Shown piece by piece: positions 3,995 through 10,047 of a stretch of 10,972 nucleotides of DNA. The stretch's first letter is position 1, and each line of letters starts with the position of its first letter. Origin of the DNA: a virus; UHGV virus genome UHGV-1700184; one strand, written 5' to 3'. Position numbers and translations under genes: made by a program. The notes beneath the pieces were generated by a model. That model saw nothing but the letters and a program-made list of their open reading frames with translations. It made no database searches and was not told the DNA's origin.

Positions 3995-4306
3995 TCAGGC
4001 TGCTGAGGTTTCTTCTTTCAGGCTTTCGATATATTTACGTGGGTCGTCGTAACATTGGCATTCGCTGTACCAATCTACCCAGCGATCCGTAAGCTCCATC
4101 TCTGATAAATCTTCATCAGTAAGGCTCTCATCCCACATCTCAAGGCCGTTAGCATTGCAGTAGTCAGGCTTGATGTTGTTGTCATACTGAAAGGCATCAT
4201 AATCAGCCAGTGCATCCATCAGGCGAACACCCTCTTCAACACTTGCCACTTCTACAATGAACGGCTTCATAGGTACTTGCGGGATATGCCAGACACGTAA
4301 TTTCAT
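3995..4306 (-). CDS. hypothetical acidic protein, 103 aa
   Basis: Track ORF 3995..4402, but the supported start is ATG at 4306..4304 (MKLRVWHIPQ...) with GGAGG 4 nt upstream; the ATG at 4402 has SD spacing of only 2 nt and would read through a terminator hairpin. C-terminal half is rich in D/E/W/Y. Confidence 0.7.
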   Translation of the reverse strand: MKLRVWHIPQVPMKPFIVEVASVEEGVRLMDALADYDAFQYDNNIKPDYCNANGLEMWDESLTDEDLSEMELTDRWVDWYSECQCYDDPRKYIESLKEETSAA

Positions 4307-4318
4307 ATTTCCTCCGTC

Positions 4319-4346
4319 AAAAAAAATCGCCCTCACACTGGAGGGC
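4319..4346 (-). terminator. intrinsic terminator candidate (minus-strand sense)
   Basis: Stem GCCCTC (4329-4334) / GAGGGC (4341-4346) with a 6-nt loop, followed on the minus strand by eight T (complement of A 4319-4326). Lies directly upstream of the RBS of the 103-aa gene. Confidence 0.6.
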
Positions 4347-4408
4347 AAAGAAGATTTCCAACAATCAGAACAAGTCGGCTCCTGTTTAGTTACGAGCGAC
4401 ATTGCTCC

Positions 4409-4436
4409 GTGTATTCACTCGTTGGAATGAATACAC
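4409..4436. repeat. perfect 9-bp inverted repeat with 10-nt spacer
   Basis: GTGTATTCA (4409-4417) ... TGAATACAC (4428-4436), in the ~115-bp segment between two minus-strand terminators. Confidence 0.7.
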
Positions 4437-4463
4437 AGTGCAGTGTTTATTCTGTTGTTTATG

Positions 4464-4491
4464 CCAAAAATAAAGGCCGACTATGCGGCCT
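4464..4491 (-). terminator. intrinsic terminator downstream of the membrane-protein gene
   Basis: Stem AGGCCG (4474-4479) / CGGCCT (4486-4491) followed on the minus strand by TTTATTTTTGG (complement of 4464-4473); 5 nt after the stop at 4496-4498. Confidence 0.65.
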
Positions 4492-4495
4492 GAAA

Positions 4496-4945
4496 TTACT
4501 TAACCAATGATGCTGCATATTCGATAAGGTAAAGCTTTGGGGCCAGCCAAATTTTTAACCAAGTCATATTGGTTACTACACCAATAATAAAAATCCCCCA
4601 CAGAGTCAAAACTCCAACCAATGGCATGATAAGAAGATTAATATCACCTTTGCTATCCCAAACCATTGTCGGCCTGTATTTGGGATTTCCTTTCTCCCAT
4701 GAATATCCTTCATCACCGATTTTACCTGTCTCAACTCTTTGGCACTGCTTCTTCATAAACCAGAAAACCAGTGGGATTGTTAGAATGGCCATTAATGTTT
4801 TAATCAGACTGTCAACCATATTCCATAGCAGCAACTGATGAACAACATCAGGAATCTGTGCCTGGCTAAATGAAACAGCCGCGTCTATTCCATTACTGGC
4901 TTTTTGCAGTAGTTCTACGAGAATCTTGTTTGCTTGTTCTTCCAT
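4496..4945 (-). CDS. small integral membrane protein, 149 aa, two predicted TM helices (candidate superinfection-exclusion or abortive-infection cargo)
   Basis: Track ORF; ATG at 4945 preceded by AGGTGA. Hydrophobic stretches LIKTLMAILTIPLVFWFM and INLLIMPLVGVLTLWGIFIIGVV. By eye the DNA is markedly AT-richer than its neighbours. Has its own terminator, and lies in the N-to-cIII interval where lambdoid phages carry accessory genes such as sieB. Confidence 0.8.
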   Translation of the reverse strand: MEEQANKILVELLQKASNGIDAAVSFSQAQIPDVVHQLLLWNMVDSLIKTLMAILTIPLVFWFMKKQCQRVETGKIGDEGYSWEKGNPKYRPTMVWDSKGDINLLIMPLVGVLTLWGIFIIGVVTNMTWLKIWLAPKLYLIEYAASLVK

Positions 4946-4954
4946 ATATCACCT
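4937..4954. repeat. 18-nt direct repeat, copy A (RBS and start of the membrane-protein gene)
   Basis: TTCTTCCATATATCACCT at 4937-4954 is identical to 5163-5180; on the minus strand both read AGGTGATATATGGAAGAA (SD, ATG, Glu, Glu). Confidence 0.85.
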
Positions 4955-4959
4955 TGATT

Positions 4960-4995
4960 GTAATAAGCATGAAATTATTTACGGACAAAAATAAA
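4960..4995 (-). promoter_or_regulatory. candidate promoter for the membrane-protein gene
   Basis: Minus-strand TTGTCC, 17 nt, TATTAC about 10-45 nt upstream of the RBS; both hexamers are only 4/6 matches, so this is weak. Confidence 0.25.
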
Positions 4996-5084
4996 GGCCA
5001 CCATCAGGCAGCCTTGTAGTTCTGTTTACCAAGTTCTCTGGCAATCATTGTCGTCGTTCGTATTGTCCACACCATTGATTCTTA

Positions 5085-5171
5085 TCAATAGTCGTAGTCA
5101 TACGGATAGTCCTGGTATTGTTCCATCACATCCTGCGGATGCTCTTCGAACTCTTCAAATTCTTCTTCCAT
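5085..5171 (-). CDS. hypothetical acidic, aromatic-rich peptide, 28 aa
   Basis: ATG at 5171..5169 preceded by GAGGTG; translation MEEEFEEFEEHPQDVMEQYQDYPYDYDY. Shares its RBS and first codons exactly with the downstream membrane-protein gene (18-nt repeat). Confidence 0.35.
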   Translation of the reverse strand: MEEEFEEFEEHPQDVMEQYQDYPYDYDY

Positions 5172-5180
5172 ATATCACCT
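5163..5180. repeat. 18-nt direct repeat, copy B (RBS and start of the 28-aa acidic ORF)
   Basis: Identical to 4937-4954. Confidence 0.85.
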
Positions 5181-5280
5181 CAAATAAGTGTTTTGCTGCC
5201 TAATTTCATTTTCTGGCGACCAACACAAGTCACCTCCATTTCACTGCGTGGCTTGCGGTAGTAAATTAGGTTTGTTCAGA

Positions 5281-5304
5281 CAATAAAAAACCCACCGAAG
5301 TGGG
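5281..5304 (-). terminator. intrinsic terminator after the N-coupled gene
   Basis: Stem CCCAC (5291-5295) / GTGGG (5300-5304) with loop CGAA, followed on the minus strand by TTTTTTATTG; abuts the stop at 5305-5307. Confidence 0.65.
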
Positions 5305-5643
5305 CTATGACCATTTTTTATTTGGATTTCGTTGGTGAGCGTGATTAACAACTCTGTGCATTACATCCTCATATTTTTCATCTTCAATTTTTTCGACATC
5401 GCGAGGAAATGGTGTTGCTAATGCTTTGTCAACTTTGTCCATTGGTTCTTCATTAATCTTATATTCAGGACCGTCATCTATAGCATTAAATCCAGGTGTT
5501 ACACCGTTTTTTAATGCATATGCTATCCTTTTTTCCCATCTCGCTATTCTCCTCCTGTCTCGAGATGTAAGACCTCTATCAGATACTTTTCTGTTTTGTC
5601 CGCGGTCAGGATTAACATAAATAGTCTTTTTCACCATAAGCAT
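5305..5643 (-). CDS. hypothetical basic/acidic protein translationally coupled to N, about 112 aa
   Basis: Track ORF 5305..5649 uses a TTG; the first ATG is 5643..5641, 2 nt after the N stop. Arginine-rich segment SRDRRRIARWEKRIA followed by an acidic C-terminal half. No family recognised. Confidence 0.6.
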   Translation of the reverse strand: MLMVKKTIYVNPDRGQNRKVSDRGLTSRDRRRIARWEKRIAYALKNGVTPGFNAIDDGPEYKINEEPMDKVDKALATPFPRDVEKIEDEKYEDVMHRVVNHAHQRNPNKKWS

Positions 5644-5645
5644 AC

Positions 5646-5951
5646 TCAATAAGCACCGTACGGTAGTTTACTGTACAATTTTATTTTTTGGACTGCATGT
5701 ATTTTGTTTCCTAATGGGTTTGAATCTTTGTAATAAATACTTCTATTTTTTCGAACGACTTCTTCTTTCTTCTTGCAGCAAAGGCTTCCTAGTGATGCTG
5801 CTTTGTCTGCTCTGACGCAACCAGAGAGCTTTAGCGCAATTTTTCGCGCCAGTGCTTCATTACTGCGTCGCTCGGCAATAAGTTCTGCTCTGCGAGCTTT
5901 GTAGCGGCTTTTTGCCGTACCTTTGGATTCTTTCCAGACAATGGTTACCAT
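5646..5951 (-). CDS. N: N-family transcription antitermination protein (phage-21 type)
   Basis: Track ORF 5646..5981; preferred start is ATG at 5951..5949 (MVTIVWKESKGTAKSRYKARRAELIAERR) with AAGGAG 6 nt upstream. GTAKSRYKARRAELIAERR matches the arginine-rich boxB-binding peptide of phage 21 N as I recall it. Cognate boxA/boxB lie upstream. Confidence 0.85.
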   Translation of the reverse strand: MVTIVWKESKGTAKSRYKARRAELIAERRSNEALARKIALKLSGCVRADKAASLGSLCCKKKEEVVRKNRSIYYKDSNPLGNKIHAVQKIKLYSKLPYGAY

Positions 5952-6058
5952 GATGGTCTCCTTTAAGTGGCTTTGGCGCATGACGCGTCGAGGTGCTTAT
6001 CTTCTCGATCGCTGTCTTGCAGCTGCAATTCGCGCCATCCCCAAAACCACTCAAGTTC

Positions 6059-6266: not shown

Positions 6267-6917
6267 TTAAGGAAGGTTTGCTAGCTTGGCATCAACGACA
6301 ACGCCAATGATTTTACAGTTCCCATTGATTTCAATCATTGGGTATTGTGGATTGAGTGGTTTCAGGAATTTTCTACCGGCATCAATAACTAACTTTTTGA
6401 ATGTCGCCTCGTTTTCTCCTTCAAGTTTGGCGACTACCAGCTTTCCATTACGTGGTTCGACTTCTGGGTCGACGAGAATAATCATCCCCTCAGGAATACT
6501 CAGTCCTGCCGGGGCAGTCATTGAATCGCCTTTAACGTCGAGCCAAAAAGAGTCTTCAGAACAATCTACCGTTGTGTCGTACCAGTTATCTATTGCACGC
6601 CTATGATATGGCTCTACAGCTTCCATCCAACATCCTGCGCTTACCCAACTAATTAGAGGATACGAACCTCTTGGATCATGCCTGCTGTGATAGGCAATGT
6701 TTGAAAGACTATCCTCTCCTTTCAACAGGTAATCAGGGGAGCACTGCAAAGCCTTGGCTAAGGCCAATAGGTTTTCGCCATTGGGCTCAGTTTCAGATCG
6801 CTCCCATTGGGAAATAGCAACATTAGACACGCCAACCATCTTGCCAAGGGCAGCCTGCCTAATCTTGAGTTCTTTTCTGCGAGCGCGAATACGCTCACCC
6901 ATCAGTTGTGTATTCAT
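6267..6917 (-). CDS. cI: CI/C2-type prophage repressor (N-terminal HTH, C-terminal S24 LexA-like autopeptidase domain)
   Basis: Track ORF, 216 aa, ATG at 6917. HTH segment QAALGKMVGVSNVAISQWERSE; C-terminal domain carries the catalytic-type GDSM serine motif and a downstream lysine (VVAKLEGE). The N-terminal domain closely resembles P22 C2 repressor as I recall it. Confidence 0.9.
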   Translation of the reverse strand: MNTQLMGERIRARRKELKIRQAALGKMVGVSNVAISQWERSETEPNGENLLALAKALQCSPDYLLKGEDSLSNIAYHSRHDPRGSYPLISWVSAGCWMEAVEPYHRRAIDNWYDTTVDCSEDSFWLDVKGDSMTAPAGLSIPEGMIILVDPEVEPRNGKLVVAKLEGENEATFKKLVIDAGRKFLKPLNPQYPMIEINGNCKIIGVVVDAKLANLP

Positions 6918-7789: not shown

Positions 7790-8597
7790 GTTAGCTGATT
7801 ACAGGCCTCAACTGGAGGTCGTGGAGCATCGCGTGGCAGATACCGAAGATGGTTTCATGCGCGTTGCTAACGAGATTACCGACAGTCTGCTGATGGCTGA
7901 TTTAACCGTCCGGCAGTTGAAGGTGATGCTCGCTATCATGCGCAAGACATACGGATTCAATAAGCCGATGGATCGACTCACAAACACGCAGATAGCAGCC
8001 ATGACAGGTATTCATCACACTCATGTTTGCGCTGCCAAGCGCCAGCTTATCGAGCGTAAATTCCTCATTGCTGATGGCGTGAAAATCGGAGTGAACAAGG
8101 TGGTTTCTCAGTGGATTAGCCAGGACAGCTTAACATTAGCTAAAACAGCTAATAAAACATTAGCCAAGTCGGCTAATGGGTATAAGCCAAGTCAGCTAAA
8201 CACAAAAGACAATATACAAAAGACAATAAATACAAATACCCCCTTACCCCCTAACGGGGGCGGCGATGGGCAGGTTAAACCTGAACGTCGCAAGGCAGAA
8301 CGAATCGACTATGAATCCTTCCTGAACGCCTACAACACCGAAGTCGGTGACAGACTGCCACACGCTGTTGCGGTCAACGAGAAACGCAAACGCCGCCTGA
8401 AGAAAATCATCCCGCAACTGAAAACGCCAAACGTGGACGGTTTCAGAGCGTATGTCAGGGCGTTTGTGCATCAGGCCAAGCCGTTTTACTTCGGAGACAA
8501 CGACACTGGCTGGACGGCAGATTTTGATTACCTGCTGAGGGAAGATTCGTTAACGGGAGTACGGGAAGGGAAGTTTGCAGACAGGGGGATTGCATGA
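7776..8597 (+). CDS. O: O-like replication initiation protein (replisome organiser)
   Basis: Track ORF, 273 aa, ATG at 7776 preceded by AGGAG. N-terminal HTH-type domain, a low-complexity linker encoded by the iteron DNA, and a conserved phage C-terminal domain. Stop overlaps the helicase start (ATGA). Confidence 0.85.
8116..8240. repeat. origin of replication: four palindromic iterons plus an AT-rich tract inside the O gene
   Basis: Iterons at 8116-8133 (TTAGCCAGGACAGCTTAA), 8136-8152 (TTAGCTAAAACAGCTAA), 8160-8176 (TTAGCCAAGTCGGCTAA) and 8183-8199 (TAAGCCAAGTCAGCTAA), spaced 20-24 bp, followed by A-rich 8200-8240 containing CAAAAGACAATA twice. Same architecture as lambda ori. Confidence 0.75.
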
Positions 8598-9970
8598 GAC
8601 AGGATATCGAAGCGAGCGTTATCGGTGGCTTGCTGATTGGTGGATTAACACCAACTGCCAGTGACGTTCTGGCAACGCTGGAGCCGGAAGCGTTTTCAAT
8701 TCCGCTCTACCGGAAAGCCTTCGAGGTTATCCGCAAGCAGGCGAGAAACAGAAACCTAATCGACGCGCTGATGGTTGCCGAGGCGTGCGGAGAGGAGCAT
8801 TTCACGTCAATCCTGATGACCAGCAAAAACTGCCCGAGTGCCGCAAACCTGAAGGGATATGCCGGAATGGTCGCGGATAACTATCACCGCCGTCTGGTGC
8901 TGGAAATCATGGATGAAATGCGTGAACCAATTCAGAGCGGAACCATCGACGCATCGAGTCAGGCGATGGATGAACTTGTAAAGCGTCTTTCAGCCATCAG
9001 AAAGCCACGTGACGAGGTTAAACCGGTACGGTTAGGGGAAATCATCACCGACTACACTGACACGCTTGACAGGCGTCTGAGGAACGGAGAAGAGTCAGAT
9101 ACCCTGAAGACCGGAATCGAAGAACTTGATGCCATCACCGGAGGGATGAACGCGGAAGACCTGGTGATAATCGCTGCTCGTCCTGGTATGGGGAAAACCG
9201 AACTGGCGCTGAAGATTGCCGAAGGCGTTGCAAGCCGCGTTATTCCTGGTTCTGACGTCCGGCGCGGAGTGTTGATTTTCTCGATGGAAATGAGCGCATT
9301 GCAGATCGCAGAGCGAAGCATTGCCAACGCCGGGAGGATGTCGGTTAGCGTACTGCGAAATCCTGCATCGATGGATGACGAGGGCTGGGCACGTGTTGCT
9401 AACGGAATGAGTCAGCTTGCAGATTTGGATGTATGGGTGGTCGATGCCTCGCGGTTATCGGTCGAAGAAATACGCTCAATCGCAGAACGGCACAAACAGG
9501 AAAATCCAAACCTCTCACTCATCATGGCGGATTATCTTGGCCTGATTGAGAAGCCGAAAGCAGATCGCAACGACCTCGCAATTGCTCACATCTCCGGAAG
9601 CCTGAAGGCGATGGCGAAAGACCTGAAAACGCCAGTAATCTCCCTGAGTCAGCTTTCGCGCGATGTTGAGAAGCGACCAAATAAACGCCCGACAAACGCA
9701 GATTTGCGTGATTCAGGAAGCATTGAACAGGACGCAGACTCAATCATCATGCTCTATCGGGAGGCGGTATATGACGAGAACAGTAGCGCCGCGCCATTTG
9801 CTGAAATCATTGTGACGAAAAACCGTTTTGGCTCGCTTGGTACGGTTTACCAGCGGTTCTGCAACGGACACTTTGTTGCATGTGACCAGGATGAAGCCAG
9901 ACAGATTTGCACAACATCAAATGCACCTGCTGCGCGTGGCAGACGATATGCACAAGGGGCTGACGTATGA
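8594..9970 (+). CDS. DnaB-family replicative DNA helicase
   Basis: Track ORF, 458 aa. Walker A motif [12 protein letters not shown] in a RecA-like C-terminal domain, plus a DnaB-type N-terminal domain. Occupies the lambda P position; P22-type phages encode their own helicase here. Confidence 0.9.
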
Positions 9971-10047
9971 CCATCTACATCACTGAGCTAATAACAGGCC
10001 TGCTGGTAATCGCAGGCCTTTTTATTTGGGGGAGAGGGAAGTCATGA
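9967..10047 (+). CDS. hypothetical hydrophobic peptide, 26 aa (coding status uncertain)
   Basis: ATG at 9967 overlaps the helicase stop (ATGA) and its stop overlaps the ninB start; translation [26 protein letters not shown] has a single TM-like segment. The same DNA contains the tR2-like terminator hairpin. Confidence 0.3.
9996..10028 (+). terminator. intrinsic terminator (tR2-like) between the replication genes and the nin region
   Basis: Perfect 8-bp stem AGGCCTGC (9996-10003) / GCAGGCCT (10012-10019) with an 8-nt loop, followed by TTTTATTTG. Confidence 0.7.

Follow-up and report, generated by a model that had tools for sequence, protein, structure and literature searches.

The window considered here, a stretch of 10,972 nucleotides (nt) from the virus genome UHGV-1700184 taken at its full length, is the immunity and early region of a lambdoid prophage of the E. 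coli type. On its minus strand, in the operon that starts downstream of pL-like sites, two short sequences occur twice, an 18-mer (TTCTTCCATATATCACCT) and a 14-mer (CAAAAATAAAGGCC). Very probably, these are the cores of two punctuation elements that delimit a slot for swappable accessory genes in the pL operon, with recombination inside the elements moving whole units. The slot lies between the terminator of the N and Nun genes and a block homologous to the boundary sequence bsq4 of phage Sf6 plus the terminator tL2A, and it can hold zero, one, two, or more units. The element on the left is a leader, a Shine-Dalgarno (SD) sequence, and ATG, sometimes with one or two more codons. The element on the right, to judge from its predicted fold, is the hairpin of an intrinsic terminator; its 3' arm and U-tract (GGCCTTTATTTTTG) continue into GGCATAAACAACAGA. 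Each motif is found twice in the window because two units stand there in tandem: orf28 with what is left of ral, and a gene encoding a membrane protein. The original prediction, made from the letters of the window, took the two repeats themselves for the boundaries. They do mark boundaries, but as the cores of longer elements, leader, SD, and ATG on the left and terminator plus GGCATAAACAACAGA on the right.

The 18-mer occurs at 4937–4954 and 5163–5180, and the two minus-strand open reading frames (ORFs) that begin within it, one of 28 amino acids (aa; orf28, 5085–5171) and one of 149 aa (4496–4945), share the start AGGTGATATATGGAAGAA. The copy at 5163–5180, identical in lambda, comprises the SD sequence (AGGTGAT), a spacer, ATG, and two glutamate codons of orf28; the copy at 4937–4954 provides SD, ATG, and two glutamate codons to the membrane-protein gene. 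Identity between the copies stretches to 21 nt if one mismatch is tolerated (4934–4954 versus 5160–5180), and there is no third copy in the window even with three mismatches allowed. The 14-mer occurs exactly at 4465–4478 and 4986–4999, and a third, similar site with two mismatches lies on the opposite strand at 10015–10028. Both repeats are thus as exact as had been claimed, and they exceed what shuffling produces: none of 200 shuffled sequences had two or more matches to the 18-mer, and none of 200 had three or more to the 14-mer. Nor are the motifs common throughout the genome, a circumstance that would have spoken against a role as boundaries, for the window has no further exact copies, and all 210 copies of the 14-mer in the fetched phage loci, which total 2.1 Mb, belong to this locus. 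The site at 10015–10028 (plus strand, GGCCTTTTTATTTG) comes just after the gene for a DnaB-like helicase (8594–9970) and probably belongs, as arm and T-tract, to a rightward terminator with no relation to these.

A consensus scan places each 14-mer as the 3' arm and U-tract of a terminator-like hairpin, with stems at 5015–4994 and 4491–4474 and predicted folding energies of -13.9 and -9.7 kcal/mol, respectively. As folded by prediction, both have the GC-rich stem directly before a U-tract (UUUAUUUUU) that typifies intrinsic terminators. The first, the R hairpin or ral terminator (4986–5015, minus strand), reads AAGGCUGCC-UGAU-GGUGGCCUU followed by UAUUUUUG and is conserved in lambda; its 5' arm encodes the final codons of ral, K-A-A-stop, with the stop codon of lambda ral in the loop. 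The second, the M hairpin (AGGCCG-CAUAGU-CGGCCU plus UUAUUUUUG), occupies 4451–4491 on the same strand together with GGCATAAACAACAGA. At the level of DNA, the two types are GGCTGCC-TGAT-GGTGGCC (R) and AGGCCG-CATAGT-CGGCC (M), and the 14-mer is common to both. The M hairpin also ends at least eight unrelated ORFs at the same position. Ral and the ORFs of 83 and 107 aa described below likewise end in KAA-stop, and an Nmad5 protein in EAA-stop (4994–5015 in the window; loci L023, L086, and L103). Since the hairpin arm doubles as C-terminal codons, the right-hand boundary lies inside coding sequence. Covariation among variants of the two hairpins was not counted as evidence, because there was too little variation (few mismatch variants and one compensatory double change).

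The window matches 393 phage records, including lambda, Sf6, HK022, CUS-3, and Shiga toxin (Stx) phages, and relatives show the slot in three arrangements: the lambda type, with orf28 and ral alone; the tandem type of the window; and a replacement type, in which the membrane gene is fused to the leader of orf28. In lambda, the ral hairpin passes directly into GGCATAAATAACAGAATAAACACTGCACTGT, the sequence that in the window follows the second 14-mer. Relative to lambda, therefore, the window has an insertion of 521 bp bounded by the 14-nt repeat, consisting of a spacer, the membrane gene, the 5' half of its hairpin, and one 14-mer. At least 120 stretches from IMG/VR and four GenBank loci, 124 fetched loci in all, were selected through the 18-mer. 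Among the matches listed, it stands before orf28 93 times and before the membrane gene 31 times, and five further copies are chance matches in unrelated sequence. The commonest spacing among these same matches is the lambda arrangement, in which the 18-mer is followed by the 14-mer at +284 and the start of bsq4 at +308; tandem loci with an intact ral also appear among them, with two 18-mers 329 nt apart. Many loci in IMG/VR are of the replacement type, the membrane gene being joined at the 18-mer to an orf28 leader of either the lambda type or the window type, with orf28 and ral absent.

Selection by the membrane protein, unbiased with respect to the motifs, gave 80 loci, of which 49 have the exact 18-mer and 25 a one-base variant. 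At least five contexts are seen upstream of the 18-mer of the membrane gene: a terminator of the ral type with the spacer, as in tandem loci (A), the lambda-type orf28 leader (B1), the window-type orf28 leader (B2), and other leaders (C and D). The 63 distinct contexts divide into 22 of class A, 22 of B2, 12 of B1, four of C, two of D, and one other. Membrane-gene alleles no more than 1% apart are spread over several of these classes, and the gene also meets several different downstream genes. Across the 63 contexts, identity to the window is 0.37–0.63 upstream, except at a few isolated positions, and it steps from 0.51 at -10 to 0.98 at -9, which is the first base of the 18-mer (4954 in the window). 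It stays at 0.81 or above through the gene, the hairpin, and GGCATAAACAACAGA (+494, 4451 in the window), then falls to about 0.76. The portable module evidently runs from 4954 to 4451, and the outer edge of the 18-mer is its left end.

Two pairs of nearly isogenic loci map the joints more closely. The tandem locus L137 and the replacement locus L022 have 100% identity in the 250 nt upstream and 97.6% in the gene plus the 250 nt downstream, and they differ by a 330-nt segment (orf28, ral, terminator, and spacer) whose joint falls within the start module. The start module of L022, AGGTGATATATGG, has its first variant base from one of the L137 copies and its second from the other, the L137 modules being AGGTGAGATATGG before orf28 and AGGGGATATATGG before the membrane gene. 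Such a pattern is as expected from a crossover inside the 18-mer, if the parent resembled L137. In the second pair, the tandem locus L200 and the lambda-type locus L116, the flanks are 99.6% and 99.0% identical, and the joint lies within the 14-mer. The suggestion that cassettes are inserted or exchanged at short conserved boundaries is thus borne out by the three arrangements of the relatives, whose joints fall inside the motifs. Alignment with lambdoid relatives, the check proposed for motifs that edge variable inserts, shows the lambda type joining at the 14-mer and the replacement type at the 18-mer, and the existence of both types means that the two genes are not always together, as they might have been had the boundaries been fixed.

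The original prediction also spoke of two units with the same start and end punctuation. There are indeed two tandem units, but the gene families that use this punctuation number at least 11. Anchoring on the start of bsq4 gave 108 distinct upstream contexts: the lambda type makes up about 42 and the tandem type 13, the membrane gene stands alone in 19, and other genes occupy 34. Every ORF ending at a terminator anchor was then catalogued in all fetched loci, including those added by a scan for the M hairpin, yielding 203 distinct contexts, and in these at least 11 unrelated ORF families use the common start module, one of the two 14-mer hairpins, or both. The membrane gene accounts for 66 contexts, ral (Pfam PF11058) for 51, an Nmad5 protein of 207 aa (PF18757 at 7e-71) for 36, an ORF of 156 aa for 10, one of 107 aa for eight, one of 83 aa and its relatives for five, one of 62 aa for three, and one of 60 aa for two; ORFs of 210, 55, and 147 aa occur in one context each. 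Searches of most of the other cassettes against PADLOC, NCBIfam, and Pfam matched only Ral, Nmad5, and GP17.

The points at which these ORFs depart from the common sequence are nested around the ATG. With the departure marked by a slash, orf28 diverges at AGGTGATATATGGAAGAA/GAA, the membrane gene at AGGTGATATATGGAAGAA/CAA, the 107-aa ORF at ...GGAAG/CA, the 83-aa and 62-aa ORFs at ...GGAA/, the 60-aa ORF at ...ATGG/, the 156-, 147-, and 55-aa ORFs at ...ATG/, the 210-aa ORF at AGGTGAT/, and Nmad5 at TTATTTGAG/. The nesting suggests that each family may have entered a single time, by a join near the start codon. The 83-aa ORF can also be the first gene before the same spacer and membrane unit. 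The 17-nt core of leader and SD is found before still other ORFs in prophages of Pseudocitrobacter, Phytobacter, Izhakiella, and Atlantibacter. A scan of genome contigs with this 17-mer gave 27 stretches, about the number expected by chance for 596 Gb, with true homology confined to the enterobacterial stretches.

Homologues of the membrane gene outside the slot lack the motifs. Those of L189 (1950–2399) and L190, with 89–90% protein identity, adjoin an Rz-like lysis gene, have an unrelated start region and unrelated downstream sequence, and carry neither the 18-mer nor the 14-mer; a distant homologue in L204 (2501–2950) has a different SD sequence and a different terminator, again without the 18-mer or the 14-mer terminator. 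The motifs therefore belong to the site and not to the gene.

How might units come and go? Recombination inside the common elements would add, remove, or replace an expression-ready unit while leaving the operon undisturbed. The exchange would depend on homology and could be carried out by the phage's RecT, by the host's RecA, or by slippage or annealing between direct repeats. Each gene family would have entered once, through a rare illegitimate or microhomology-mediated join at or near the resident start codon that allowed immediate expression, and would have spread later through longer flanks, about 100 nt of leader on one side and more than 130 nt of terminator plus bsq4 on the other. Since no promoter-like site accompanies the units, they are presumably expressed from pL, with N-mediated read-through of the successive terminators. 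Phage recombinases of the Rad52-like type and RecT are reported to drive the formation of mosaics on short or diverged homology, and the minimal segments quoted for efficient pairing are 23–27 bp for Red-beta and 31–34 bp for RecA (PMC3945230).

Those same minima weigh against recombination within the motifs as the general means of exchange, and they do not stand alone. At 18 and 14 nt, the motifs fall short of what either Red-beta or RecA needs to pair efficiently, so crossovers strictly inside them should be rare, and much of the re-assortment could descend from a few founding joints that spread via the flanks or inside the gene itself. Selection may maintain the start module and terminators chiefly for the expression and termination that they afford, not for recombination. 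The direction of events, be it insertion, deletion between direct repeats, or exchange between phages, is not readable from the sequences. A simple cross of the other two forms leaves the 31-nt spacer of the tandem form unaccounted for. Finally, recombination, termination, and expression are all deduced here from sequence.

Of the explanations that compete with exchange between phages at the punctuation elements, the one that survives best, albeit as an unlikely one, confines events to single genomes: an ancestral tandem would be the sole source, and the other forms would have arisen by deletion between its direct repeats, through slippage or single-strand annealing. It gets the geometry right, as deletion between the 18-mers of a tandem gives exactly the replacement form, and deletion between the 14-mers gives exactly the lambda form. 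The distant homologue in L204, which follows a 53-aa ORF that ends in KQAA-stop with an R-like hairpin, suggests moreover that the tandem order is old. Deletion, however, does not join the membrane gene to at least four leaders (B1, B2, C, and D) and several downstream genes, nor fill the slot with at least 11 unrelated ORFs, nor put the 83-aa first gene before the same spacer and membrane unit. The variety of leaders, occupants, and first genes requires exchange between genomes, not deletion alone.

The precise insertion relative to lambda, flanked as it is by a 14-nt direct repeat, might also be read as the work of a small mobile element (a transposon, something like a miniature inverted-repeat transposable element, or a homing element), the repeat being its target-site duplication. 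This is very unlikely. The 521-bp segment encodes no transposase or nuclease, its only ORF being that of the 149-aa membrane protein, and its ends have no terminal inverted repeats. The supposedly duplicated sequence is the arm of a terminator, found also behind at least eight unrelated genes at the same position. The left end can be the 18-mer instead, as in the replacement form, copies of the gene elsewhere have no such repeat, and the 521-bp unit is confined to this slot.

It is still less probable that coincidence or functional convergence produced the repeats, that is, that the same SD-ATG-GAA-GAA start and generic terminators evolved independently with no history of recombination. The motifs are admittedly made up of functionally constrained pieces (an SD sequence, the ATG, early codons rich in A, one hairpin arm, and a U-tract), a 14-mer with two mismatches exists at the unrelated terminator-like site at 10015–10028, and the 18-mer turns up by chance in five unrelated viral contigs; yet shuffling reproduced neither repeat, every one of the 210 14-mers is at the slot, the membrane gene is fused to the orf28 leader exactly at the 18-mer, and its homologues off the slot have another SD and another terminator. 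Just as improbable is a site-specific system like that of integrons, with the hairpins as attC-like sites for a dedicated recombinase: the comparison is invited by a series of ORFs that have no promoters and are each closed by a conserved imperfect hairpin, but adjoining the slot there is no gene for an integrase or any other recombinase (the ORFs of the window are N, Nun, cI, Cro, CII, O, DnaB, NinB, RecT, Gp157, and gp17), the hairpins have the intrinsic-terminator architecture of a 6–9-bp GC stem and U-tract rather than the 57–141 bp of attC, and joints occur also at the start module, which has no hairpin.

The plus strand of the window carries genes for a cI-like repressor (6267–6917), Cro, CII, O, the DnaB-like helicase, and NinB, and the minus strand, further to the left, those for RecT (1406–2308) and Gp157. 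The minus-strand order begins with an N-like gene (5646–5981) and a Nun-like gene (5305–5649; phrog_5632 at 9e-71), followed by a terminator, a leader, orf28, the ral remnant, the ral terminator, a 31-nt spacer, the membrane-protein gene, its terminator, the bsq4/tL2A block, and the gp17 exclusion gene. An N-like antiterminator gene and a gene for an HK022 Nun-like termination factor are thus adjacent in one pL operon (5305–5981), as they are in mEpX1 and PA28. The terminator after the Nun-like gene (stem 5306–5289, minus strand) precedes the leader of the slot, and that leader (5181–5278, minus strand; ...GCAGCAAAACACTTATTTG) forms the slot's conserved flank on the left, ahead of the first unit; in relatives it is found before orf28, before the membrane gene, and before several other ORFs. 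No part of the window matched Rfam at E up to 0.1, and the conserved blocks fit no known RNA family.

The 28-aa ORF had been taken for a possible remnant or original occupant of the site. It is not a remnant: alignment with lambda shows it to be an intact orf28, identical in protein sequence to that of lambda (NP_040623; phrog_16060), and the remnant is ral. The gene that follows it (5004–5102, minus strand) is frameshifted by an internal deletion of 103 bp relative to lambda ral. The claim that each ORF is followed by a terminator accordingly holds for the 149-aa ORF but not directly for the 28-aa ORF, as the ral remnant (~5004–5102) comes between. The deletion junction, at about 5062–5066, lies on a CAAT microhomology, the lost stretch being the one between GGA|CAAT and GGG|CAAT in lambda. 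The gene orf28, whose product is very acidic, looks truly protein-coding from its pattern of variation; 140 copies comprise 24 distinct alleles, and of 18 distinct substitutions in the part upstream of the overlap with ral, 16 fall at codon position 3. The overlap of orf28 with the start of ral, 17 nt, suggests translational coupling.

A 115-nt probe across the ral junction matched over its full length in 204 of the 5,426 complete E. coli genomes, in varied prophage backgrounds, so the dead allele is widespread and travels with an intact orf28. At the deleted allele, the Prokaryotic Genome Annotation Pipeline (PGAP) calls a 23-aa "antirestriction Ral family protein". One IMG/VR contig (L016, 6427–6496) has a chimeric orf28 start with a HindIII site (ATGGAAGAACAAGCTTTGAAGAG), and its source may be an engineered vector made from lambda, not a natural phage. 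Mention of orf28 and ral in Martinsohn et al. 2008 concerns strain genotypes only. The 31-nt spacer (TCCGTAAATAATTTCATGCTTATTACAATCA; 4955–4985, minus strand) is found only in tandem arrangements, with 35 copies of R hairpin plus spacer. A resemblance between spacer positions 4967–4981 and the end of the membrane gene at 4488–4502 (15 nt, 87% identity) was dropped as being at the chance level for 1.1 kb.

The membrane-protein gene (4496–4945, minus strand; phrog_3054) encodes a 149-aa protein with two transmembrane segments, has a GC content of 39.6% as against 45.6% for the window, and is a homologue of Sf6 gene 34; the protein has no match in Pfam, NCBIfam, or PADLOC. Comparison with the 140-aa product of Sf6 gene 34 (L001, 1693–2115) shows a mosaic, with 54% identity overall, the first 40 and last 22 residues being nearly exact and the transmembrane middle diverged. 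Downstream of the slot lies the conserved block (4318–4450, minus strand) homologous to the Sf6 feature annotated "bsq4; boundary sequence" and to tL2A, with the tL2A stem at 4348–4327. The Sf6 record (AF547987) annotates bsq1 through bsq7, and bsq4 comes directly downstream of the second 14-mer. Upstream of tL2A, the bsq4-homologous block has an inverted repeat (4399–4420/4425–4446) with 22-nt arms, 82% complementary, and a 4-nt loop; the repeat (4399–4446) has no match in Rfam. The next gene of the operon (3995–4303, minus strand; phrog_1510) is a superinfection-exclusion gene of the P22 gp17 type (Pfam PF17420 at 6.8e-55).

What the locus shows is not a system of a new kind but a further, unusually clear case of the boundary sequences of lambdoid phages. 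Boundary sequences (bsq) were reportedly described for HK620 and Sf6 (Clark et al. 2001; Casjens et al. 2004). There as at this locus, short conserved sequences at gene edges adjoin non-homologous alternatives, and breakpoints coincide with them. Here, in 203 contexts, ORFs of at least 11 unrelated families have the same leader, SD, ATG, and hairpins at their edges; homology breaks where the 18-mer begins, at its first base, and immediately past GGCATAAACAACAGA, with joints mapped in near-isogenic pairs; and the genome is lambdoid, the slot adjoining a recognized boundary sequence (Sf6 bsq4 plus tL2A, corresponding to 4318–4450). There are differences. The 18-mer module and the two hairpins are not among the annotated bsq features of Sf6, and at least 11 alternative genes are documented here at one slot. 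Moreover, the left boundary takes in SD, ATG, and up to two codons, and the right may take in the last codons (KAA-stop or EAA-stop). Because the boundaries reach into codons, unrelated proteins share terminal residues. The idea of boundary sequences is that of the "linker" in the modular theory of Susskind and Botstein (PMC3233612).

The membrane unit is also like a moron: its neighbors are conserved whether it is there or not, it has its own terminator, and its GC content is lower than that of its surroundings. It is absent from lambda and L116 and present in the window and L200, the flanks of L200 and L116 being 99% identical, and its predicted terminator comprises a hairpin and U-tract at 4491–4465. 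As reportedly defined by Juhala, Hendrix and colleagues in 2000, however, a moron is an extra gene between two phage genes with its own promoter as well as its own terminator. A consensus sigma-70 scan of the minus strand from 4300 to 5300 found no site, though the scan was crude and a weak promoter is possible; replacement-type loci dispense with the spacer altogether. The membrane unit differs further in using the resident start module and in residing in an early operon subject to N antitermination, not as an autonomous unit expressed in the lysogen.

An integron array is likewise a series of promoterless, interchangeable ORFs that end in hairpins and are expressed, as is presumed here, from an upstream promoter. 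Among the ORFs of the 11 kb examined, however, there is no IntI-type integrase, nor is there an attI. The hairpins, with GC stems of 6–9 bp, loops of 4–6 nt, and a U-tract, are not attC sites (imperfect palindromes of 57–141 bp with core sites) but intrinsic terminators by their form, and movement would be by general homology-dependent recombination. Nor does the segment have the transposase or the inverted repeats at its ends that would mark a transposable element.

A fixed position with many alternative accessory genes calls to mind the hotspots of P2 and P4, where phages and satellites carry variable genes for defense and counter-defense (PMC9122126). The occupant Ral, a known inhibitor of type I restriction-modification (PMC12373910), and the neighboring superinfection-exclusion gene fit the comparison, but hotspots of the P2/P4 type are delimited by conserved core genes and this slot by expression signals of about 35–45 nt. 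In the Ip loci of T-even phages, unrelated proteins have only an N-terminal leader in common (PMC12373910). Perhaps the leader, SD, and ATG together with the terminator are not just passive traces of earlier exchanges but constitute a selected "docking adaptor", and this position in the pL operon is a plug-and-play slot for genes of counter-defense and exclusion, an idea that we offer as a tentative one, with the odds somewhat against it. Any ORF attached to the start codon already in place, and closed off by the terminator already in place, would at once be expressed correctly, early in infection, and could then be passed between phages by way of the adaptors. If that is true, enterobacterial prophages could be mined systematically for new genes of anti-restriction and exclusion with a left anchor of about 17 nt and a right anchor of about 28 nt.

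Two models compete to explain the mosaicism of phage genomes: in one, short conserved linkers serve for homologous recombination; in the other, illegitimate joining is random and selection follows (PMC3233612). The locus offers an unusually clean natural data set for such models, with one slot, at least 11 genes, joints known to the nucleotide, and near-isogenic pairs that represent before and after. The nested points of divergence suggest a part for both processes: a gene would rarely enter, by an illegitimate join at the start codon, and would then spread via the punctuation. The slot holds ral, an Nmad5 nucleotide-modification-associated protein, and several genes of no assigned function, all beside an exclusion gene, and with such contents the two anchors could harvest candidate counter-defense genes.

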